Source: Bacteroidia bacterium
GTDB lineage: Bacteria > Bacteroidota > Bacteroidia > 2-12-FULL-35-15
Length of the DNA stretch: 64,000 nt
Assembly: GCA_038258655.1 (NCBI GenBank)
Contig: JBBSPS010000001.1
Coordinates: forward strand, 7,089-71,088
Direction of reading: 5' to 3'
Within the stretch, counting starts at the first letter, position 1. The number at the start of each line of letters is the position of its first letter. The notes beneath the pieces are model-generated. The model saw nothing but the letters and a program-made list of their open reading frames with translations, was not told the DNA's origin and searched no databases. The position numbers and the translations under genes are program-made. Shown here in pieces: positions 1-42,017 of this stretch.

Positions 1-998
1 CAACAACATTACTGACTTATCACATGTTCAAAAAAGCAGGATTAAATGTGGGCCTCGCTGGTAACGTAGGGGAAAGTTTTGCAATGCAGGTGGCAGAAAA
101 TGATTTTGATTATTACGTGATCGAGTTAAGCAGTTTTCAGTTGGATGGGATGGTTGATTTTAAAGCTGATATAGCGGTGTTACTAAATATCACACCGGAT
201 CATTTAGACAGGTATGATTATAAACTAGAAAATTATGCGGATTCAAAATTCAGAATAATACAAAATCAAACAGAAGCGGATGCATTCATTTATTGCATAG
301 ATGATCCGGTAACGGCAAAAGAAATTAAAAAAAAAACAATTAAAGCAAAACAATACCCTTTTTCGATCAAACAAAAAGTAGAGCAAGGCGCATACTTAAA
401 TGAAAAAAATGAACTCGTAATAAACACAAACAACTCTAATCCCTTATTTATGACACTACAAGAACTAGCGCTACAAGGTAAACACAACATCTATAATTCC
501 ATGGCGGCAGGAGTTACCGGGAAATTAGTAGAGATCAGAAAAGAAATAATTCGTGAAAGCCTTTCTGATTTTCATAACATTGACCATCGTTTAGAATTAG
601 TTGGCAATGTTCATGGTATCGAGTTTATCAACGACTCCAAAGCTACCAATATAAATTCAACCTGGTATGCCCTTGAAAGTATGAATAACCCTGTAATCCT
701 TATTTTGGGAGGTGTTGATAAAGGAAATGATTATTCCATGTTGAATGATCTTGTAAAAGAAAAAGTAAAAGCGATCATTTGTCTCGGTGCCGATAACAAA
801 AAAATCATCAAAGCATTTGGCGCAAAAGTGGAAACTATCCTGGAAGCCAAATCTGCGAAAGAAGCAGTAGCTCAAGCGTATAAATTAGGAAAGAAAGGGG
901 ATACTGTTTTATTATCACCTGCTTGCGCCAGTTTCGATTTATTCGAAAATTATGAAGATCGTGGAACGCAGTTTAAACAAGCCGTTCGAGCATTATAA
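1..998 (+). CDS. murD: UDP-N-acetylmuramoylalanine--D-glutamate ligase MurD, 5'-truncated by window edge
   Basis: Frame is open back to base 3, so the gene starts upstream of the window. Central and C-terminal Mur-ligase motifs are present (ITPDHLDRY, DHRLE, ILGGVDKGNDY, LLSPACASFD). Sits in the conserved dcw order ahead of ftsW. Confidence 0.9.
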   Translation, partial: TTLLTYHMFKKAGLNVGLAGNVGESFAMQVAENDFDYYVIELSSFQLDGMVDFKADIAVLLNITPDHLDRYDYKLENYADSKFRIIQNQTEADAFIYCIDDPVTAKEIKKKTIKAKQYPFSIKQKVEQGAYLNEKNELVINTNNSNPLFMTLQELALQGKHNIYNSMAAGVTGKLVEIRKEIIRESLSDFHNIDHRLELVGNVHGIEFINDSKATNINSTWYALESMNNPVILILGGVDKGNDYSMLNDLVKEKVKAIICLGADNKKIIKAFGAKVETILEAKSAKEAVAQAYKLGKKGDTVLLSPACASFDLFENYEDRGTQFKQAVRAL

Positions 999-1033
999 AT
1001 AAATAATGTGTTGGTGTTCTAAAAAATAAAAAA

Positions 1034-1534
1034 ATGTTAGAAAAAATAAAAAATAATGAAACACAGCAGGAGAATGCGTTGTTATCACGCCAACGAGTTC
1101 AATCATCTGGTGATGAGCATCAGTTAGAGTTCGTTGCAGAAGTGAATGGTATCACTTACATCAACGATGCAAAATCTATCCGGTTAACCGCTACAAGGAA
1201 TTCATTAGAGAAAATTGAAACCTCTGTAGTACTTATCACTGGAGGAGGGGATCGTGGAAATGATTATTCCACATTATCTCAGCAAGTGAAACAAAAAGTA
1301 GTCGCAATCATTTACTTAGGGAATTATAGTGATGAAATATTGAAACATTATTCATGGCACTCTATGCTTTTTACGAAAGCTGCATCAATTAGTGAGGCAG
1401 TTGTATTGTCTTCCTGTTATGCAAAATCAGGAGATGCAGTATTGTTTTCACCTGCATGTAATAATTCCGTTGATAATTATAAAACAAGAGGTAATGAGTT
1501 TAAATCATATGTAAATAGCTTACCAAGAAAATGA
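1034..1534 (+). CDS. Stand-alone Mur ligase C-terminal domain protein, a paralog of the MurD C-terminal domain with no ligase core
   Basis: 166 aa ORF aligns to the C-terminal 135 aa of the adjacent MurD at roughly 40-45% identity. Matching blocks: HQLEFVAEVNGITYINDAKS vs HRLELVGNVHGIEFINDSKA; VVLITGGGDRGNDYS vs VILILGGVDKGNDYS; GDAVLFSPAC...RGNEFK vs GDTVLLSPAC...RGTQFK. Its stop overlaps the ftsW ATG (ATGA). Confidence 0.6.
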   Translation: MLEKIKNNETQQENALLSRQRVQSSGDEHQLEFVAEVNGITYINDAKSIRLTATRNSLEKIETSVVLITGGGDRGNDYSTLSQQVKQKVVAIIYLGNYSDEILKHYSWHSMLFTKAASISEAVVLSSCYAKSGDAVLFSPACNNSVDNYKTRGNEFKSYVNSLPRK

Positions 1535-2682
1535 ATTTGTTTAAGCACATAAAAGGTGATAAAGTAATTTGGACAATCGTATTGCTGCTTTCTTTATTGT
1601 CTGTATTGGTAGTTTATAGTTCAGTTGTAGCATTGGCGTATCGTTATAGAGAAGGTGATACAGCATCTTATCTAATAAAACATATTTTTATTGTAGGCTC
1701 GGGAATTTTTTTAATGTATTTTATTCATAAAGTAAAATATTCTTACTTTTCACGCATATCGCAGATTGCTATTTTTTTAGCAGCCCCACTATTACTTTAT
1801 ACATTGTTAAAAGGTGTGAGTGCCGGTGAAGCAAGCCGTTGGTTGGCAATCCCAGGGACATCATTAACGTTTCAAACATCAGATTTCGCAAAGCTTGCTT
1901 TAATAACATATGTAGCCCGTATGTTATCTGTCAAACAAAGTGTGATCAAGGATTTCAGACAAGCATTTTTACCTATCGTAACTCCTATTCTAATTATTTG
2001 TGCGCTGATCTTACCCGCGAATTTTTCTACGGCAGCATTATTATTTTTAACCTGCCTGGTATTGATGTTTATTGGAAGAGTGAATGCAAAACATTTGCTT
2101 TTACTTATTGGTTCAGGAATTGTATTTGTAGCATTATTAATTGTATTGATATTTAATTTTCCAACGGTCATCAAACGTGGAGAAACCTGGAAAGCACGAA
2201 TTGAAAATTTCAGAAAAGGTGATAGCGAAAGTAATTTCCAAGCCGAACAAGCAAAGATCGCCATCGCTACAGGTGGCATTGTTGGTAAGGGTCCGGGTAA
2301 TAGTATGCAACGCAATTTTTTACCACAAGCATCATCTGATTTTATTTTTGCTATTGTAATAGAAGAATGGGGCTTGATCTCAGCCATCGTGATTGTGTTC
2401 TTGTATGTTATTTTATTATTTCGCGGAGTACGCATTGCCAATAGAAGTGAACGAACATTTGGCAGTTTACTTGCTATAGGATTGACATTTAGTTTGGTAT
2501 TTCAAGCCATGGTAAATATGGCTGTGGCTGTAAATTTATTTCCGGTAACCGGTCAGCCTCTGCCATTAATAAGTATGGGCGGAACATCTATTTGGTTCAC
2601 AAGTATTGCTATAGGAATGATATTAAGTATTAGCGGTGAAACCGAAATTGCTAAAGAAGGAGGCCAGCTTGAAACCGCTTAA
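1531..2682 (+). CDS. ftsW: Cell division protein FtsW (SEDS-family peptidoglycan glycosyltransferase)
   Basis: Ten-TM protein with the SEDS motif block AIATGGIVGKGPGNSMQRNFLPQASSDFIFAIVIEEWG. Lies between murD and murG. Confidence 0.9.
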   Translation: MNLFKHIKGDKVIWTIVLLLSLLSVLVVYSSVVALAYRYREGDTASYLIKHIFIVGSGIFLMYFIHKVKYSYFSRISQIAIFLAAPLLLYTLLKGVSAGEASRWLAIPGTSLTFQTSDFAKLALITYVARMLSVKQSVIKDFRQAFLPIVTPILIICALILPANFSTAALLFLTCLVLMFIGRVNAKHLLLLIGSGIVFVALLIVLIFNFPTVIKRGETWKARIENFRKGDSESNFQAEQAKIAIATGGIVGKGPGNSMQRNFLPQASSDFIFAIVIEEWGLISAIVIVFLYVILLFRGVRIANRSERTFGSLLAIGLTFSLVFQAMVNMAVAVNLFPVTGQPLPLISMGGTSIWFTSIAIGMILSISGETEIAKEGGQLETA

Positions 2683-24117: not shown

Positions 24118-26193
24118 ATGGCAAAGAAAAGTATTGTTTTAATCAATCGCGACCTTAGTTGGCTCTCTTTTAATGAACGCGTTTTACAAGAAGCTACCGA
24201 TAAAACTGTTCCTTTAATTGAACGATTAAAATTTCTTGGTATTTTTTCAAACAATCGCGATGAATTTTTTCGTGTGCGCGTAGCTACTCTTAAACGCGTT
24301 GTTAAACACCAAAAAAAAGCGGAAGAGTTAATGGGAGCCCTCCCCCAACGCTTACTTGATACTATACAAAAAACAGTTATTGAACAGCAAAATATATTTG
24401 AGCGCGTGTATCAAAATATTTTGAAAGAACTTCAAAAACGAAATATTTCCATCATTAATGAAAAACAACTAAGTGCAGAACAAGGTTTATTTGTAAAGGA
24501 ATATTTTCGCGACAAAATAATGCCCAGCCTTTTCCCCATAATGCTTGATAATAACCCCAAATTTCCCTATTTAAAGGGTCAGTCGGGCTACCTTATTATA
24601 AAATTTAGCCGTACAGATAAAAAGAAAAAGATCAAGTACGCTCTTATAGAAATACCAACGGAAACACTTTCAAGGTTTATTGTTTTGCCGAAAGAAAAAG
24701 AAAAAAATTATATTATTTTACTGGATGATGTTATTCGCTATTGTTTAGACATTATTTTTTCAAATTTTGAATACGATTATATTGAAGCTTACAATATAAA
24801 GCTGACAAGGGATGCAGAGATTGATATTGATAATGACATTGCCAAAAGTTTTGTAGAAAAGATTTCAAAAGGATTAAAAGATCGAAAAAAAGGGCAACCG
24901 GTCCGGCTGGTTTATGACAGTGAAATAGCTCCCGATATGCTTGAGTTCATTATGAAAAAAATGAAATTGGGGAAAGAAGATAATCCCATTCCCGGAGGCC
25001 GTTACCATAATTTTAAAGACTTTATTTCTTTTCCGAATATAGGTGAAAGTGAATTGAGTTATAAAAAAATTCCGGCACTTAAACATCCGGATCTAACGGG
25101 CCAGTCAAACATTTTTAAAGTTATCAAAAAGAAGGACGTACTAATAACTTACCCATACCAATCATTTGATCATATAATTGACCTTCTGCGGGAAGCATCC
25201 ATTGACCCAAAAGTACACGCCATAAAAATAACTTTGTATCGTGTCGCAACAAATTCAAACATTGTAAAGGCATTAATCAATGCTGTAAAAAATGGCAAAC
25301 AAGTCACTGCTGTAATTGAAGTGCAGGCCCGTTTTGATGAAGAGTCAAATATATTCTGGGCAAATAAATTGCAGGAAGAAGGGGCAATAGTGATTTACGG
25401 TGTTCCAAAACTTAAAGTTCATTCAAAACTATTTTTGATCTCGCGTAAGGAAGGTGGAAAAATGCATTTGTATGCTCATGTAGGTACCGGGAATTTTAAT
25501 AATGAAACGGCACGCGTTTATACCGATCATAGTTTATTGACCGCTGATAAAAAAATTACAGAGGAGGTACAAAGTGTTTTTGATTTTTATTTTGATAATT
25601 TAAAACGTGCGTCTTTCAAACATTTATTAGTTTCCCCTTTTCATATGCGTAAACGCTTTATGCAACTCATTAGCAAAGAGATCGATAATGCAAAGGCAAA
25701 TAAAAAAGCTCACATCATTTTAAAATTAAATAATTTGGTGGACACTGAAGTGATCAAAAAGTTATACGAAGCAAGCACTGAAGGAGTAAACATAAAATTG
25801 ATAGTACGGGGAATTTGTTCACTGGTAGCCGGAGTAAAAGGGTTGAGTGATAATATTGAAGCAATAAGCATTGTTGATAAATATTTAGAACATAGCCGTG
25901 TGTTCATATTTTGTAATAACGGAGATGAAAAATACTTCATATCTTCGGCAGACTTGATGGCACGCAACCTTGATTATCGTTCTGAAGTAGCTGTTCAAAT
26001 TAATGACAAAAACATACAGCAACAATTGCGGAACATTATTGATATCCTTTGGTCTGATAATACAAAAGCAAGAATATTAGGAAGTAAACAGGATAATGAA
26101 TACCGGAAAATTGCCAGAAATATGAATAAAATACGTGCACAGGAAGCCATTTATAATTTATTAAAATCTAAAAAAAGTAATACTCCAAATTGA
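24118..26193 (+). CDS. ppk: Polyphosphate kinase 1
   Basis: N-terminal LINRDLSWLSFNERVLQEA, PLD-like HSK motifs, 691 aa. Confidence 0.93.
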   Translation: MAKKSIVLINRDLSWLSFNERVLQEATDKTVPLIERLKFLGIFSNNRDEFFRVRVATLKRVVKHQKKAEELMGALPQRLLDTIQKTVIEQQNIFERVYQNILKELQKRNISIINEKQLSAEQGLFVKEYFRDKIMPSLFPIMLDNNPKFPYLKGQSGYLIIKFSRTDKKKKIKYALIEIPTETLSRFIVLPKEKEKNYIILLDDVIRYCLDIIFSNFEYDYIEAYNIKLTRDAEIDIDNDIAKSFVEKISKGLKDRKKGQPVRLVYDSEIAPDMLEFIMKKMKLGKEDNPIPGGRYHNFKDFISFPNIGESELSYKKIPALKHPDLTGQSNIFKVIKKKDVLITYPYQSFDHIIDLLREASIDPKVHAIKITLYRVATNSNIVKALINAVKNGKQVTAVIEVQARFDEESNIFWANKLQEEGAIVIYGVPKLKVHSKLFLISRKEGGKMHLYAHVGTGNFNNETARVYTDHSLLTADKKITEEVQSVFDFYFDNLKRASFKHLLVSPFHMRKRFMQLISKEIDNAKANKKAHIILKLNNLVDTEVIKKLYEASTEGVNIKLIVRGICSLVAGVKGLSDNIEAISIVDKYLEHSRVFIFCNNGDEKYFISSADLMARNLDYRSEVAVQINDKNIQQQLRNIIDILWSDNTKARILGSKQDNEYRKIARNMNKIRAQEAIYNLLKSKKSNTPN

Positions 26194-27089
26194 AATTTGC
26201 AGCAATTGATATAGGCTCCAATGCAGTACGACTATTGTTTTGTAATGTTTACGATGACAATGGCATGATCACTTCAAAAAAAGCCGAGCTAATTCGTGTT
26301 CCAATTCGTTTGGGAGGAGACTCTTTCTCCACCGGAAAAATTTCCGCAAAAAAAATTGACATATTAGTGACCGCGATGAAAGCGTTTAAAAACCTGATCG
26401 AAGTGTATGATGCCATCGATTACCGTGCTTGTGCTACTTCCGCTATGCGCGATGCACAAAACAATTCTGAAATAGTTGAACGTGTTAAAAAAGAAGCGGG
26501 CATACAAATTGAAATTATTGACGGACAAACTGAAGCTGATATTATTTATTCTAATCACATTGAAGAACATTTAGATAAAAACAATAATTATTTATATATT
26601 GATATTGGTGGAGGAAGTACAGAGATTACATTATTCTCAAAAAATAAGGTGGTGGTTTCAAAGTCATTTAATATAGGAACCATTCGAATGTTACATGATC
26701 AGATAAAAAAAGAGTATTGGTCAGATTTTAAAGATTGGGTGAAAGAAACTGCTGCCGACTATAAACCTTTAATAGCGATTGGCTCGGGCGGAAACATTAA
26801 TAAGCTGTTTAAAATGTCGGGCAAAAAATCGAATAAACCTCTATCTGCTGCCAAATTAAAAAGCCTGTGCGAATTAATAGAATCGTACTCTTATGAAGAA
26901 CGCATCCAAGTATTGGGACTAAATCCTGATAGGGCAGATGTAATTATTCCTGCTTCAAAAATTTTACTGAGCGTTTTAAAAAAAGCGGAAATAGAAAAAA
27001 TTATTGTTCCCCAGATCGGCTTGGCAGATGGTATCATACGGCAATTATATGAAAAACACAAAGAAAAAAAATTAACAGAGAAGGTGTAG
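26190..27089 (+). CDS. ppx: Exopolyphosphatase / guanosine pentaphosphate phosphohydrolase family
   Basis: Ppx/GppA fold (AAIDIGSNAVRLL, DIGGGSTE). The TTG start overlaps the ppk TGA. Confidence 0.85.
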   Translation: MKFAAIDIGSNAVRLLFCNVYDDNGMITSKKAELIRVPIRLGGDSFSTGKISAKKIDILVTAMKAFKNLIEVYDAIDYRACATSAMRDAQNNSEIVERVKKEAGIQIEIIDGQTEADIIYSNHIEEHLDKNNNYLYIDIGGGSTEITLFSKNKVVVSKSFNIGTIRMLHDQIKKEYWSDFKDWVKETAADYKPLIAIGSGGNINKLFKMSGKKSNKPLSAAKLKSLCELIESYSYEERIQVLGLNPDRADVIIPASKILLSVLKKAEIEKIIVPQIGLADGIIRQLYEKHKEKKLTEKV

Positions 27090-27096
27090 ATTTTTT

Positions 27097-28542
27097 TCAA
27101 TGCATTCCTATGCGTTGCAAAAAACCTTTTTTATTATATTCTTTTTTATCAACGCCTTTCGCTTCAATTAAATAATAGTAAGTACCATCCATCACATTTT
27201 TCCCATCCCAAGGACTGTTTACATCGCTGGATTCAAATATTTTTTTTCCCCAACGGTCAAATATTTGAATGTTATAGCTTACAAGATTTTTTGTGTTTAC
27301 TAAAAATAGGGGATGAGTTCCACCGGGAGTAAAAACATTTGGAATAAATATCGCAGATGTATCACAAGGGGGAATCATTTTTAAAGTATAGGTGAATAAT
27401 TGTTGCCCCGGAACCGGACAAGATCCATCACCCACGGTAACCTTAAATATATAAGTAGCATTCACGCTCCCGGCTGGTGCTGTCCAGCTCATGGTTGCCA
27501 CCAAAGGATTTTCACCCTTAGTAATAACTGTTGAACCAGGCAATACAGAAGCTATATCCGATAATAATGTAAGTGTATCACCCGCATCAACATCAGTATA
27601 AGTTGCATTAAAAGTAAATGTAGAACCTTCGCATGTTTCAACAGAATAGGAACTTGTTTTATCAGCACCGCTTACAATTGAAATAATACCACCCGAAGCA
27701 TCAGGAATATTATTTGAACAACTTTGAACAACGAATTGAATATCGCGCATCACACTTCCAATGAGTTTCCCATTCTTGTCGTATTCCTGGATCAACACCA
27801 CCACTACAAAACTTCCAATAGTAGTTGGAGTAAAAGTTAATTGCCCTGCATTGTGATCAATTACAATTCCCGGAATAGCCGTTGCAGCCGAATAACCGGC
27901 TGTATATGCAAGAGTTGTCGGCCCAACAGCTCTTGCATCTATAAGTGAATAATATAATGAGTCTCCATCAATTTCTGTTACTTCAAAATTATAGTTTACG
28001 AGTTGATTCACACAAACGTACGGAATAGGTTGTGCAGTAAATGAAGGAGAATTATTACAAAGTGCGGTAACACTATGAAGAGTCGCCTCAACATACGTTC
28101 CATTATTTCCGGGGGTTTGTAAGTTTAAAATAGCGGCATTTCTGCAACAGCTGCCCCAATACATTGTCCATGTATCGCAAGGTGTCGCAAGTGTAACTAC
28201 TCCCGAGTAATGAAACACCTTCATGCCCGGTAATGAGCCACCATTGCAAATACTATTATTAATTTTAGAAGGACATAATTGGGAAATTTCTGTTCCGGAG
28301 GCATTGATAACATTTACTATTGTTGTCGCTATATTACCGCAGGTGCTTGAAAAACGAACTGTTTGTTGTGAATTAAGAACCACTCCCGCAACACAATCAA
28401 CAAATACATTCAAATTGACCTGATATTGATCATTGCCCAAGCAAACATAACTTAGATCAGCTCCGGCAATATGATTAGCCTCGCTGTTGTTTGGAAGCAA
28501 CAAATAAAATATAAGTAAAGTGATGGAAATTATTTTTTTCAT
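27097..28542 (-). CDS. T9SS type B sorting (gliding-motility-associated C-terminal) domain protein
   Basis: Signal peptide. The C-terminal block FTPGG...IQIFDRWGKKIFES...WDGKN..GTYYYLIEA...KGFL matches the type B CTD pattern. Confidence 0.75.
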   Translation of the reverse strand: MKKIISITLLIFYLLLPNNSEANHIAGADLSYVCLGNDQYQVNLNVFVDCVAGVVLNSQQTVRFSSTCGNIATTIVNVINASGTEISQLCPSKINNSICNGGSLPGMKVFHYSGVVTLATPCDTWTMYWGSCCRNAAILNLQTPGNNGTYVEATLHSVTALCNNSPSFTAQPIPYVCVNQLVNYNFEVTEIDGDSLYYSLIDARAVGPTTLAYTAGYSAATAIPGIVIDHNAGQLTFTPTTIGSFVVVVLIQEYDKNGKLIGSVMRDIQFVVQSCSNNIPDASGGIISIVSGADKTSSYSVETCEGSTFTFNATYTDVDAGDTLTLLSDIASVLPGSTVITKGENPLVATMSWTAPAGSVNATYIFKVTVGDGSCPVPGQQLFTYTLKMIPPCDTSAIFIPNVFTPGGTHPLFLVNTKNLVSYNIQIFDRWGKKIFESSDVNSPWDGKNVMDGTYYYLIEAKGVDKKEYNKKGFLQRIGMH

Positions 28543-28552
28543 ACACCTTTTT

Positions 28553-28568
28553 GTTTGCGAAGATAAAA
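28553..28568 (-). promoter_or_regulatory. Conserved box TTTTATCTTCGCAAAC (gene-sense), 10-26 nt upstream of the start codon
   Basis: 15 of 16 nt identical to 42046-42061, which lies upstream of the DUF2723 gene. Confidence 0.3.
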
Positions 28569-28569
28569 C

Positions 28570-28606
28570 TATTTAAGGTAAAAAAAACAGGAAGTGTTTG
28601 TTGAAA
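28570..28606 (-). terminator. Strong Rho-independent terminator after the sigma/anti-sigma operon
   Basis: Perfect 12 bp stem CAGGAAGTGTTT / AAACACTTCCTG with a gttg loop, followed on the minus strand by TTTTTTTT. Confidence 0.65.
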
Positions 28607-28777
28607 CACTTCCTGCTAATAAGAAACACAACCCAGGCATCGGTTACAATACCCGTAATGTTGCAGTGGTGGTAGGGCTAACAACAGGATTGAATATTGT
28701 TGAGTTTCAATTCAGTGTATGACTTCCAAATCAAAACCACTACCGACACCTTTATGGGTTGCGTTAATTTCTGAATA

Positions 28778-29752
28778 TTATCTTGTTAAATTGAATGATC
28801 CTTTACGTTCAAATGATTTACCATCAAAACCTTCCGCATTAATTATATAGAAATAAGTTCCTTCTTTTGCTTCTTCTCCTATTAAATTTTTACCATTCCA
28901 TTTACCATCCCATTTGTCTTCCGATTGATACACAGCTTTGCCTTTTTTATTAAAAATAATAGCATTCATGTTCTTAACATTTTTAGCCTCACATAAATAC
29001 ATTGGCAACTGAGTTCGTGAAAAATCAGTAGGAATGGATGATACAGACGAATTACCTATTACCTCTATTTTAACACTATCCAAGGTAGTTTTTCCATCTG
29101 CACCGATAGAAGTAAGTTTTACCGTATAAACCCCAGGTTCATTATAAATATGTACAGGGCTTGTTTCGGTTTCAACTACTTTACTGTCACCGTAGGTCCA
29201 TTTATTAACTTTTCCTGTTCCATTATTCATAAGACTTACAATCAATGGTATTGTTCCAGCAACTGGTGTGGCAAAAATATTAGCTACTTGTTTTTCAGAA
29301 AACTTGTGAATCACGGATTCCATTTCCTTTTTATTTGTTTTCGCTATGATCGCTTCGTTTGTTTTATTTGATTCAGAAGAAACGACCGTTTTTTTATCAG
29401 CTAATTTTTGTTCGGCTTTTACAGCAACAGGGCCTGGCTCATTAATAGCCATTTGAGCCGGTTTCTCAATAGTAGTTGCCGGAACAACCAATTTATTATT
29501 CTCTGTTGATTGTGTTTTATCGCTGTTTGTCCAATGCATTACCATTATAGTACTGATAACAGTTGCAACCGATGAAACAATAGCGATAATAGTACTGGTG
29601 CCTATTTTATTCAAAATTACTTTAACCAAAATACCTAAACCAAAACCTTTTAAACCGATCTGAATATTTTTCCAAACATTGGAACTCACTTCCGGTTCAA
29701 AGTTTTCAAACTCCTTTTTAAACAGATCTTCTATCTCATCGTCTTTTTTCAT
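28778..29752 (-). CDS. Putative anti-sigma factor with a PKD domain and a T9SS type B-like C-terminal domain
   Basis: N-terminus DEIEDLFKKEFENFEPEVSSNVWKNIQ is typical of Bacteroidota anti-sigma partners. One TM segment. PKD-like block TYGDS...PGVYTVKLT. C-terminal IFNKKGKAVYQSEDKWDGKWNGKNL...GTYFYII...KGSFNLTR. The start overlaps the sigma stop (ATGA). Confidence 0.6.
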   Translation of the reverse strand: MKKDDEIEDLFKKEFENFEPEVSSNVWKNIQIGLKGFGLGILVKVILNKIGTSTIIAIVSSVATVISTIMVMHWTNSDKTQSTENNKLVVPATTIEKPAQMAINEPGPVAVKAEQKLADKKTVVSSESNKTNEAIIAKTNKKEMESVIHKFSEKQVANIFATPVAGTIPLIVSLMNNGTGKVNKWTYGDSKVVETETSPVHIYNEPGVYTVKLTSIGADGKTTLDSVKIEVIGNSSVSSIPTDFSRTQLPMYLCEAKNVKNMNAIIFNKKGKAVYQSEDKWDGKWNGKNLIGEEAKEGTYFYIINAEGFDGKSFERKGSFNLTR

Positions 29753-38786: not shown

Positions 38787-41700
38787 CTATTGATGTTGTT
38801 GCATTTTGGGCGACAGGCCATATTCCTGAAGCAATTTATTATAGCGTGTTTCAAACTCTTTTGATAATGCAGGTTGTTTAAAATTGTTCGCGAAATAAAT
38901 TAAACGTTCTAAAATATCCTGTGCTTGTTGTACATCGCTTCCATATTGAGGAATACGTTTTCTATCCAATGAATAATAATAATTGATGTTGCTTTCATAA
39001 TTAGTGAATAATTTTTTGGCGAGATCATTGGCTTTGTCATTGGCCCCTGCTTGGTAATAAGCGATTACAATGGAATATAATGTAGCATCATATGGAACAT
39101 TTTCCTGTGGTGTTACTTCCAAGACTTTATCTAAAACTTTGATCGCTTTATCTTTTTTACCTTCTTCAATTAATACGCTGGCAAGTGTTCCTACACGCTG
39201 ACGTATGTTCAACGCGCATGAACGCAAGAACACATCATCTAAATAGGTTCCTTTTATGTCCATACTTCCCCACTTGAATTTATTCATCACATTGTTATAC
39301 ATTACCTCTGTATTAACACGTGTTTCCTGTGTTTCCTGATCATTTTGTTTGATCGGTACCAGACGATACGCCAACCCTTCCAACTGTAAATACGGAGCAA
39401 GATTTAAATAAGAACTTGCAGACGCTGTAGCGGCAAAGTATATAGGGCGTTTCCAATTATTGTGTGCCAGGAGATCAATGATCATCAAATCATTTTTTTG
39501 AATATAATTACCTGTCAATGTCCAATCAATATTTTTCACGATACGTCCGGCCAATTGTTTAGGTACCGTACCGTTATTTATAACGGTAGCACTGTCAACA
39601 GGTACACGCATATTTTTAGTCGGGAAATAATTATAGAATGTTCCAGAAGCTACTTCCAGCTGATTACTCCGGTCGTCACTTTTAACGAATTCTATCAGAT
39701 CTTTTACAGGAATAAATCCTTCCACTTTACGATCATGAAAAAGTACTATGTCGCGCGTGCCTTGTCGATACTGGTCTTTGGTCATTGAAAAAGGAACAGG
39801 ATCCGAATCATACGCTTTATGTACCATCTGGTCAATATACCAATCCGTGTTCAATAATTCCAAACAAATTACACGTACATCCGTACGGATGCCTTCCACT
39901 TCCTGTGCGTACCACAATGGGAATGTATCATTATCACCATTGGTAAATAAGATGGCATTTTTCTCGCATGAATTTAAATAGTCGGCAGCAAAATCACGTG
40001 CTATATAACGATTGGAACGATCATGGTCATCCCATTCTTCTTTTGCCATAATAGTTGGAACAGCCAATAAACAAAGGGCGGATGCTACAACAGCACTTTT
40101 TGTTTGGTTCATTTTCTTTTCGAAAAAATCAAAAATTGCAAGCACCCCCAAACCTATCCAAAAAGCGAAAGCGTAAAAAGACCCTGCATACGCGTAATCA
40201 CGTTCACGAGGCTCAAAAGGTTTTTGATTCAAATAAATTACAATAGCCATACCCGTAAAGAAAAACAACATACCTACCACTGCCGCGTTTCTATTGTCTT
40301 TTTTAATGTGATAATACAAACCTATTAAGCCCAGTATTAAAGGGAATCCGTAAAGGGCATTTTTAGCTTTGTTATTGTCAGCGCCATCAGGTAAATTTTT
40401 TTGAGGGCCTAACCTGTATTCATCCAAAGGCGTGATACCGCTAATCCAGTTACCGTCAGAGCTATTTCCATGTCCCTGTATATCATTTTGGCGGCCTACA
40501 AAATTCCAAAGAAAATACCGGGAATACATCCAACCTACCTGATAATCAAAGAAGAAAAATAAATTTTGCGCGAAGGTTGGTTTTTCAATAGTTGTAGGTT
40601 CACCTGTTTGAGGATCGGTCGCATTTATTTTTTGATAATTCCGTGGATTGGTCCATTTCCTATATCCTACCTTGTGATTTTCCTGACTGCTCCACATACG
40701 TGGAAATAGAGTGCAGAAGCGATCATCATAATTAGGAACAGAATTTTTACGGTCGTCGGTAATTACATATTTTCCTGCGTTTTTATCCTGGGTGTAAGTA
40801 GTACCAACAGGCACATTGGAATTTGTCTGATCAACATTATAGGTGGGACTTTCGTCCAAAAAAGGTTTATTTTTAACAGTTTGCTTATTCACTGGCTCAA
40901 CCTTAGAGTAAACAGGGTTTCCATCTAAATAAGGTTTCTGTGGATCAAGAGGTGCGGAAAAATATTGTCCGTACATGATGGGCCATGTACCATATTGTTC
41001 GCGGTTCAAATAAGATAAAAGGTTCACCGCATTCTCCGGATTATTTTCATCCATTGGTGGGTTTGCATTGGAACGTATCACCAACACTAAAAAGGAAGAG
41101 TAGCCAATTAAAATTACGGTGAAACAAAGTATCACTGTATTAATAATTGGTTTCACTTTTTTGGTTGTATAATGTAAACCCCATACAATTCCACCAATCA
41201 GCAATACTGCATATATAATAGTACCACTATTAAATGGTAATCCTAATTTATTAACCGTAAACAATTCAATATTAGCAGCAAGTTTCACGATCATCGGAAT
41301 AATACCAGCTTGTATCCCACCTAAAATAACGATGGATAAAATACTTGTAATGATCAAACCTTTGCGGGTTATCGTATTGTATCTTTTAAAATAATAAATA
41401 AACACGATAGCCGGTATAGCCAATAAATTCAGCAAATGCACACCTATTGACAAACCTACCAAATAGGCTATTAAAATTATCCAACGATCGGCATGCGGAC
41501 CATCAGCTTCACGTTCCCATTTTAAGATCGCCCAAAATACAATGGCTGTGAAAAAACTGGACATCGCATATACTTCACCTTCAACTGCGGAAAACCAAAA
41601 TGAATCAGTAAATGTGTAAGCCAATGCGCCTACTGCTCCCGCGCCAAATACCGCGATCATTCTGCCAAGAGTAAGTTCTCCTGATTTATCAACTATTTTA

Positions 41701-42017
41701 CGTGCTAAAGCTGTAATAGACCAAAATAAAAATAATATGGTAAATGCGCTGCATAATGCGGACATGCTATTAACCATGGCGCCTACTTTACTTGTATCGC
41801 CAAAAGCGAACAAGCTAAAAAATCTGCCGATAAGCAAAAATAAAGGAGCTCCCGGAGGATGGCCCACTTCTAATTTATATGCGCAAGCAATGTATTCCCC
41901 GCAATCCCAAAAGGAAGCGGTTGATTCCATAGTACTTAAGTACACAAACGCCGCGATTAAAAATACACACCAACCGATGATATTATTCAGTCGCTGATAG
42001 TTAGAAATATAATTCAT
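38787..42017 (-). CDS. DUF2723 domain-containing large polytopic membrane protein (putative glycosyltransferase fold) with a C-terminal TPR-like region
   Basis: N-terminus YLSTMESTASFWDCGEYIACAYKLEVGHPPGAPLF is the DUF2723 signature; many TM helices; 1076 aa. Confidence 0.7.
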   Translation of the reverse strand: MNYISNYQRLNNIIGWCVFLIAAFVYLSTMESTASFWDCGEYIACAYKLEVGHPPGAPLFLLIGRFFSLFAFGDTSKVGAMVNSMSALCSAFTILFLFWSITALARKIVDKSGELTLGRMIAVFGAGAVGALAYTFTDSFWFSAVEGEVYAMSSFFTAIVFWAILKWEREADGPHADRWIILIAYLVGLSIGVHLLNLLAIPAIVFIYYFKRYNTITRKGLIITSILSIVILGGIQAGIIPMIVKLAANIELFTVNKLGLPFNSGTIIYAVLLIGGIVWGLHYTTKKVKPIINTVILCFTVILIGYSSFLVLVIRSNANPPMDENNPENAVNLLSYLNREQYGTWPIMYGQYFSAPLDPQKPYLDGNPVYSKVEPVNKQTVKNKPFLDESPTYNVDQTNSNVPVGTTYTQDKNAGKYVITDDRKNSVPNYDDRFCTLFPRMWSSQENHKVGYRKWTNPRNYQKINATDPQTGEPTTIEKPTFAQNLFFFFDYQVGWMYSRYFLWNFVGRQNDIQGHGNSSDGNWISGITPLDEYRLGPQKNLPDGADNNKAKNALYGFPLILGLIGLYYHIKKDNRNAAVVGMLFFFTGMAIVIYLNQKPFEPRERDYAYAGSFYAFAFWIGLGVLAIFDFFEKKMNQTKSAVVASALCLLAVPTIMAKEEWDDHDRSNRYIARDFAADYLNSCEKNAILFTNGDNDTFPLWYAQEVEGIRTDVRVICLELLNTDWYIDQMVHKAYDSDPVPFSMTKDQYRQGTRDIVLFHDRKVEGFIPVKDLIEFVKSDDRSNQLEVASGTFYNYFPTKNMRVPVDSATVINNGTVPKQLAGRIVKNIDWTLTGNYIQKNDLMIIDLLAHNNWKRPIYFAATASASSYLNLAPYLQLEGLAYRLVPIKQNDQETQETRVNTEVMYNNVMNKFKWGSMDIKGTYLDDVFLRSCALNIRQRVGTLASVLIEEGKKDKAIKVLDKVLEVTPQENVPYDATLYSIVIAYYQAGANDKANDLAKKLFTNYESNINYYYSLDRKRIPQYGSDVQQAQDILERLIYFANNFKQPALSKEFETRYNKLLQEYGLSPKMQQHQ

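Follow-up and report, generated by a model that had tools for sequence, protein, structure and literature searches.

A stretch of 64,000 nucleotides from a Bacteroidia bacterium (contig JBBSPS010000001.1, positions 7,089 to 71,088 of the forward strand; referred to below as the window) carries, between murD and ftsW of the division and cell wall (dcw) cluster, a separately encoded soluble protein of 166 amino acids (aa), which is shown by homology and by its predicted model to have the fold of domain 3, the C-terminal domain, of the ligase MurD. This paralogue is probably, judging from its sequence and genomic setting, a so far unnoticed protein that assists or regulates the making of cell-wall precursors. 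Its gene is as follows.

1034..1534, + strand: stand-alone MurD domain-3 paralogue, 166 aa, 18.5 kDa, ATG start

Homology to the C-terminal domain of the adjacent MurD, which an initial annotation of the bare sequence had proposed, was confirmed by BLASTP, which aligned residues 28-163 of the paralogue with residues 187-324, the extreme C-terminus, of the partial MurD open reading frame (ORF) in the window (59/138 identities, 43%; E 2e-33). The motifs quoted in that annotation are all present, with GG.D.GNDYS at residues 70-79, SPAC...RG..FK at residues 139-157 and AKSIR replacing MurD SKATN at residues 46-50, and its other sequence-level statements also proved correct. The NCBIfam murD model TIGR01087 matches the paralogue over positions 303-440 of its 441 only (E 2.9e-31), with 109 bits against a whole-protein cut-off of 211.95 bits, and phmmer comparison with PDB sequences returned MurD chains exclusively, always through their last ~140 residues. 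In the suggested check against Pfam Mur_ligase_C (PF02875), the window protein itself scores 26.4 bits (E 1.3e-5), slightly short of the gathering score of 28.4, and most family members carry a precomputed PF02875 match; its homology is secured by the BLASTP, TIGR01087 and phmmer results. Neither Mur_ligase_M nor MurD_N gave a Pfam match in the paralogue, and none of the matching Pfam or NCBIfam models is specific to the stand-alone family.

The AlphaFold2 model of the paralogue, which was built on 66 homologues (mean predicted local distance difference test score (pLDDT) 83, predicted template modelling score (pTM) 0.78), contains a well-predicted alternating beta/alpha domain over residues 27-166 and has the Rossmann-like alpha/beta fold of Mur ligase domain 3. 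The best Foldseek match in the PDB was MurD 7u35 (query TM-score (TMq) 0.77, root-mean-square deviation 2.1 A, 146 columns), and the top 33 matches were MurD, followed by domain 3 of MurF, Mpl, MurE and MurT. The first 26 residues are modelled with pLDDT below 50-56.

1034..1111, + strand: N-terminal 26 residues of the paralogue, poorly predicted, with a basic helix at residues 7-19

The conserved LLSRxRVxSS of this N-terminal segment aligns with MurD IIRESLSDF, ahead of H301, and the alignment identifies the segment as what is left of the final helix and the linker of the central domain in MurD.

Because both the UDP-binding domain and the ATP/P-loop domain are absent, the predicted protein cannot be a ligase, as had been claimed from the outset, and it falls outside the MurD enzyme family (TIGR01087 equivalog) in both its architecture, which lacks the three domains, and its substrate residues. 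A split murD was rejected, since the upstream MurD is complete and has its own intact Mur_ligase_C domain and substrate residues; the full-length gene on the identical contig L001 encodes 446 aa with MurD_N, M and C domains, in which every catalytic and D-glutamate (D-Glu) residue is intact. A read-through or frameshift fusion with MurD was rejected as well, since the spacer between the two genes contains several stops and their relative frame varies among loci.

The residues that were kept and changed were compared in E. coli MurD numbering (checked against 1E0D/1UAG) among 35 real MurDs from the same and related genomes, 105 free copies from the clade of the window protein (the window clade, or core) and 103 other free copies. 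The ADP contacts of MurD include N271, R302 and D317, and its D-Glu contacts are T321, K348, S415, L416 and F422 (PMC9780078; also PMC3527612), with K348 contacting the alpha-carboxylate of D-Glu (PMC9780078). Real MurDs keep all positions listed below at 97-100%, with the exception of L409 (89%).

H301: MurD 100%; window clade 99%; other free copies 98%
R302: MurD 97%; window clade Q or H, never R (0%); other free copies kept
N316 and D317: MurD 100%; window clade 100%; other free copies 100%
K319: MurD 100%; window clade K or R 97%; other free copies kept
A320: MurD 97%; window clade S 95%; other free copies kept 87%
T321: MurD 100%; window clade I 85%, T 10%; other free copies kept
N322: MurD 100%; window clade R 92%; other free copies D 95%
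G345: MurD 100%; window clade kept; other free copies lost
K348: MurD 97%; window clade variable (R 40%, K 14%); other free copies V/L/I/M
L409: MurD L 89%; window clade F 99%; other free copies F 96%
S415: MurD 100%; window clade kept 58%; other free copies kept 94%
416 (L in E. coli): MurD F 100%; window clade variable; other free copies F 74%, Y 22%
E423: MurD E 97%; window clade K 90%; other free copies R 55%

The corresponding segments of the window gene are as follows.

1163..1183, + strand: N44-D45-A-K47-S-I49-R50, counterpart of MurD N316-D317-S-K319-A-T321-N322
1184..1213, + strand: L-T-A-T-R-N-S-L-E-K, remainder of the remodelled helix, where MurD has I-N-S-T-W-Y-A-L-E-S
1241..1267, + strand: GGGDRGNDY, counterpart of MurD GGxDK348xxDY
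1442..1501, + strand: LFSPACNN--SVDNYKTRGNEF, counterpart of MurD LLSPACASFDLFENYEDRGxQF

The window protein has Q at R302, I at T321, R at K348 and N/S at S415/L416. Across the window clade, further switches in the helix (S325 to A, W327 to R in 92%, Y328 to N in 89%) produce the new conserved motif SIRLTATRN(S/A)LE, in which SIRLTATRN stands in place of ATNINSTWY. Residues S415, L416 and D417 are eroded in this clade, and two residues of the 415-417 loop are deleted in the window copy. The F409 hallmark (LFSP) extends to the 182- and 205-aa fragments L007_T and L080_T, which are described below, and Y422 and R425 are kept throughout the free copies. Taken at the level of residues, this pattern indicates loss of the parent substrate site and a new constraint on the same face, not decay, and it makes it unlikely that D-Glu is bound in the normal way in the window clade.

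The mechanism tentatively favoured here is that the paralogue is a non-catalytic mimic of domain 3, which would bind in trans to a Mur ligase core and modulate precursor flux. The former active-site face would dock on the N-terminal and central core of the ligase, and MurD itself is the obvious candidate partner, since the C-terminal domain that it already has moves as a unit between an open and a closed state (PMC4816537). Docking would tune the flow of UDP-MurNAc-peptide toward the membrane steps encoded just downstream. This proposal is suggested by the near-invariance of the surface which in MurD faces the nucleotide and the central domain (H301, N316, D317 and K319), and by the loss of the residues that hold D-glutamate or their replacement by the equally conserved I321, R322, R327, N328 and K423. 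A more specific form of it, in which a dcw-encoded trans-acting regulator places its pseudo-domain 3 on open MurD or another Mur ligase and so gates precursor synthesis with the FtsW and MurG steps, is possible, if rather doubtful.

Several points weigh against docking. The retained H, ND and K residues could be kept for folding alone, and the core-clade loss of R302, an ADP contact, weakens the predicted contact with bound nucleotide. A free domain must also compete with the covalently tethered C-terminal domain of MurD, and co-transcription at roughly murD dosage is odd for a pure inhibitor. In addition, the free copies evolve ~5x faster in protein sequence than the MurD C-domain, and every carrier seen is uncultured.

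The remodelled pocket could alternatively bind a small ligand, with the paralogue serving as a sensor or hand-over carrier. The pocket-lining positions are newly conserved and not random: the core family has I321 and R322, of which R322 could stand in for the lost K348, the other group has D322 together with a hydrophobic residue at 348, and the retention of S415 in the non-core group and of Y422 and R425 in all free copies fits the same idea. However, in MurD the central domain and the acyl-phosphate supply the rest of the D-Glu site, which leaves the isolated domain 3 with half a pocket, and the 415-417 loop is variable in the core as well as shortened in the window copy, so that ligand binding appears rather improbable.

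Relatives of the gene are numerous. Among 5.8 billion proteins, 119 matched the paralogue, at 100% to ~35% identity; almost all of these are free-standing proteins of 160-175 aa from uncultured Bacteroidetes or Bacteroidia assemblies. The exact protein and matches P0068, P0108 and P0113 lie in dcw clusters of the order mraY-murD-X-ftsW-murG-murC, where X is the paralogue; P0116 (locus L007) is also in a dcw cluster, but the order differs in that there is no full-length murD, and the context of P0119 was left out because its ORF is truncated at a contig start. The proposed synteny comparison, for which one genome per GTDB species was scanned and other Bacteroidota loci were retrieved via MurD, likewise found murD-X-ftsW recurring across related Bacteroidota dcw clusters. 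All 19 species with close relatives of the paralogue (L009-L027) share this gene order, and 56 retrieved loci labelled Bacteroidota have at least one MurD-C-like ORF (150-180 aa) between murD and ftsW. Almost all the other Bacteroidota loci (Flavobacteriales, Cryomorpha, Parvicellaceae and Bacteroidia metagenome-assembled genomes (MAGs)) carry such an ORF; it is missing from a Polaribacter MAG (L048) and from L088, and none was found at the retrieved loci of Nitrospirota, Chlorobiota, Ignavibacteria and other phyla. The expectation that nothing lies between murD and ftsW in Bacteroidota thus holds for part of the phylum, as in L048 and L088, and fails for the 56 loci.

A profile of the more distant copies matched 1194 proteins at E<=1e-10, of which the best 120 are nearly all 160-180 aa long, and a search seeded with a Parvicellaceae copy added 143 further proteins of the same kind. 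In a profile search of 1.84 billion representatives (50% identity clusters), at least 62 of the best 150 were free copies, a figure that is only a lower bound, since free copies and MurD are not distinguished by the profile. These searches point to a family of several hundred sequences, placed as murD-X-ftsW in uncultured Bacteroidia and Flavobacteriales-like MAGs, and the window gene, which had been described as an orphan, is therefore one of many. The order murD-X-ftsW was seen at each family locus that was inspected. The window protein has the hallmarks of the family, which are LFSP, a position 348 at which K is not conserved, and invariant H301, N316 and D317. The carriers occur in lakes, groundwater and wastewater. 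The named families among them are all Flavobacteriales in NCBI taxonomy, and the labels of family members in the protein searches and cluster look-ups were exclusively those of MAGs, with no cultured species among them.

The public names of family members are 'hypothetical', 'glutamate ligase domain-containing protein' or, wrongly, MurD. Members of 160-175 aa are labelled 'UDP-N-acetylmuramoylalanine--D-glutamate ligase' in JGI and some NCBI records, and one record is labelled 'cyanophycin synthetase, partial'. The ligase names are a systematic misannotation of a non-ligase. In full-text literature searches, no paper on a free-standing, dcw-encoded MurD domain 3 was found.

The substitution pattern indicates that the paralogue is a working gene under purifying selection and not a dead remnant. 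Its Nei-Gojobori (NG86) ratios of nonsynonymous to synonymous substitution rates (dN/dS) are 0.044, 0.063, 0.061 and 0.085 in pairs with unsaturated dS, and those of the MurD C-domain in the same genomes are 0.01-0.04. Within the clade, identity to the window proteins is 80-90% for MurD, FtsW and MurG and 56-75% for the small protein; over 150 columns, the free copies have a mean identity of 71% to each other and the MurD C-domains of the same genomes one of 94%, while each free copy is ~39% identical to its own MurD. This faster evolution relative to the neighbouring genes, and the Pfam score slightly under the gathering threshold, are what could be expected of a functionless leftover of duplication or of an assembly or annotation artefact. 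Such an origin is nevertheless barely credible: a decaying duplicate is contradicted by the dN/dS of 0.04-0.09 and by a frame that is intact in all loci, and a length of 160-175 aa is kept in more than 200 diverged sequences. The initial annotation, which had argued for a retained and translated gene, is supported by these values, and the event which it named as fatal to its claim, a duplication of the murD 3' end during assembly, did not occur. Assembly duplication was rejected because the two copies are only 43% identical, which excludes collapsed or duplicated reads, and because the arrangement recurs in dozens of independent assemblies; the same protein is present on the independent Logan contig L001, and the arrangement is also found on contigs of several Mb.

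Neighbour-joining trees of domain 3 place every free copy in a single clade beside the MurD domains of Bacteroidia, with branches several times longer. Bootstrap values are 199/200 for the window clade, 194/200 for the window clade together with L003, L024-L026 and L036, and 97/100 for a wider group A that includes the 154-161 aa 'MKE..GQKTFSI' type, but only 51/200 and 21/100 for all free copies together. The simplest reading of tree and synteny is the one first proposed, a partial tandem duplication of murD. The event would be old and would have copied the 3' third of the gene, with the duplicated piece predicted to start close to the final helix of the central domain. Since group A is monophyletic in 97/100 replicates, at least this group represents one duplication, which predates the divergence of lineages with MurD C-terminal domains that are now 67-79% identical.

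Four Flavobacteriales-like MAGs carry two different stand-alone paralogues, one after the other, between murD and ftsW, at the following positions.

L028:4441-5489, tandem paralogue pair
L033:4457-5501, tandem paralogue pair
L059:4448-5525, tandem paralogue pair
L068:3896-4967, tandem paralogue pair

The downstream copies of these pairs are orthologous, with 42-60% identity across genomes and 25-37% identity to their upstream partners; being closer to each other than to these partners, they indicate that two paralogues have been stably kept. Two diverged and retained paralogues, together with an ATP-side motif that persists alongside a changed amino-acid pocket, would suit an alternative specificity module, in which the free domain would take the place of the MurD C-domain in trans and let the MurD core add another residue at stem-peptide position 2. 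This reading is very improbable. In every genome the C-domain of the adjacent MurD is complete and canonical, and a free domain would be at a disadvantage against a tethered one. The core family also lacks R302, and these uncultured organisms are not known to have an unusual stem peptide.

Three dcw clusters have, directly between mraY and ftsW, a MurD C-terminal fragment of 182-205 aa and no full-length murD, while being otherwise complete.

L007:6001-6549, MurD C-terminal fragment in a murD-less cluster
L089:10001-10549, MurD C-terminal fragment in a murD-less cluster
L080:2136-2753, MurD C-terminal fragment in a murD-less cluster

The L089 cluster is otherwise complete from mraZ to ftsZ, and that of L080, a Chitinophagaceae MAG, is also without murC between murG and ftsQ. 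All three fragments keep R302, T321, K348 and S415, yet carry the LFSP hallmark, and in the 182-aa fragment of L007 (P0116), which retains a remnant of the central domain, PS..S stands where MurD has its HN..N271 motif. On this gene content, the real murD of these three organisms presumably lies elsewhere in the genome, or else the other domains are encoded separately.

The fragments also bear on a second role that has been considered for the paralogue, that of an adaptor or scaffold, in which an extra MurD-like handle would link the soluble Mur ligase steps to MraY, FtsW and MurG and leave MurD catalysis untouched; this draws on the scaffold literature (PMC6420597). Their retention in clusters without a full murD is consistent with it, as are the strictly conserved position of the paralogue immediately 5' of ftsW and murG and its new conserved surface motif, with two added arginines and the E423K switch. 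However, the paralogue has no membrane-targeting segment, its charge and pI are unremarkable, the C-domain is only assumed to be the part of MurD which contacts MurG, and the ATGA coupling to ftsW described below is not conserved. An adaptor role is accordingly considered unlikely, and trans docking of a non-catalytic domain-3 mimic is preferred.

The genes on either side of the paralogue in the window are as follows.

1..998, + strand: murD 3' part, central and C-terminal domains; the window start cuts the gene
999..1033, + strand: spacer between murD and the paralogue, 35 nt, A-rich ahead of the ATG
1531..1534, + strand: ATGA stop/start overlap of the paralogue TGA with the ftsW ATG
1531..2682, + strand: ftsW (Pfam FTSW_RODA_SPOVE, E 1.3e-70), in an operon-like array with the paralogue

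The murD 3' part matches Pfam Mur_ligase_M and Mur_ligase_C as well as TIGR01087 positions 125-441 (E 3.5e-89), and ftsW is followed by murG, murC, ftsQ, ftsA and ftsZ. The placement of a 166-aa ORF 35 nt past the murD stop was correct (stop 998, ATG 1034), and its own stop does overlap the ftsW start codon; the use of this ATGA as an argument for translational coupling is weak, since the overlap is present in only 2/18 core loci, the window contig and L023. The murD-paralogue spacer is 29-37 nt long in 17/19 loci (the window clade and its two nearest relatives), and the gap between the paralogue and ftsW is usually 0-12 nt, with a range of 0-100 nt elsewhere. A semi-conserved TTGATTGgTGTTATTTAAA-like sequence lies in the spacer in the window (999-1033) and in L002 and L010-L022, and might be an internal promoter or translation signal.

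No rival ORF of at least 50 aa overlaps 1034..1534 on either strand. An Rfam scan of the whole window gave zero matches, including rRNA, and hence no RNA element in 1034..1534, and no terminator-like sites were found by scan between murD, the paralogue and ftsW. Counts in the sigma-70 promoter and terminator scan were at shuffle level, with a promoter model that is unsuited to Bacteroidota. Among the 19 large ORFs scanned in the window, there were no other Mur-ligase-like genes without a C-domain.

Some features of neighbouring genes depend on gene calling or assembly. The longest murG ORF starts with GTG at 2636 and shares its first 47 nt with the end of ftsW (window 2636-2682), and the murG call on the identical contig L001 begins 33 nt later (369 aa, 14-nt overlap with ftsW). 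The murC gene is split in two ORFs in L014 (6751-8141; 145+306 aa) and L025 (6695-8097; 203+255 aa), probably by a frameshift or an assembly error. The MurD frames of L060 (2492-4417), L064 (661-2598) and L085 (2732-4417) are 100-200 aa longer at the N-terminus (561-645 aa), which may be an artefact of the choice of the first start codon or a real extension. In the rest of the window (24118-29752 and 38787-42017), ordinary Bacteroidota housekeeping genes are present, namely those for a PPK1-PPX pair, two type IX secretion CHU_C sorting-domain proteins, RNase R, RecG and a 1076-aa TMEM260-like putative O-mannosyltransferase.

In comparison with known systems, the paralogue shares with MurD domain 3 the same fold (Foldseek TMq 0.70-0.77), clear sequence homology and the core motifs H..E, ND.K, GG.D..DY, SPAC and RG..F. 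It differs from MurD in being encoded alone, without the UDP-binding and ATPase domains, in having the contacts R302, T321, N322, K348, S415 and L416 lost or switched, and in having a new conserved helix motif, with L409 changed to F in all free copies. The Foldseek matches to the paralogue model include 8ras_Q (E 2.5e-4), which we take to be the plastid MurE-like subunit of the plastid-encoded RNA polymerase. This subunit is similar in that a fold derived from a Mur ligase is kept for a role other than ligation, but it is a eukaryotic multi-domain MurE homologue in a transcription complex, whereas the paralogue is a single bacterial MurD-derived domain inside a cell-wall gene cluster. Catalytically dead paralogues serve as regulatory subunits or free domains elsewhere, such as HisZ for HisG/HisRS and the free-standing AlaX/YbaK editing domains. 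These resemble the paralogue in that part of an enzyme was duplicated, catalysis was lost and a separate polypeptide was kept in the parent pathway; they have other folds and act in other pathways, and any partner of the paralogue is putative. Control of MurD by a dedicated protein partner has a precedent in MigC, a COG0523 protein of Acinetobacter baumannii which binds MurD and lowers its activity (PMC12208494), although MigC has no relationship to the paralogue in sequence or fold, contacts domain 2 of MurD and is encoded outside the dcw cluster. The domain itself is known, and the family of free-standing, dcw-encoded MurD domain 3 proteins is undescribed as far as the literature was searched.

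Few bacterial gene arrays are as conserved or as intensively studied as the dcw cluster, and Mur ligases are antibiotic targets. An additional conserved dcw gene was overlooked, probably because its carriers are uncultured and annotation pipelines name it 'hypothetical' or MurD. At minimum, the family is an annotation trap and needs a name separate from MurD. Signs of neofunctionalisation are clear, and the family is restricted, as far as seen, to uncultured Bacteroidia. If the paralogue binds MurD or the membrane machinery, it would provide a natural protein tool for the study of Mur ligase domain closure and regulation, and if it is a regulator, the lineage-specific expansions to two paralogues would give partner specificity. 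It would then be an example of a pseudo-enzyme regulator arising via partial tandem duplication, and would represent a previously unknown control layer of peptidoglycan synthesis, made from a piece of the enzyme itself.

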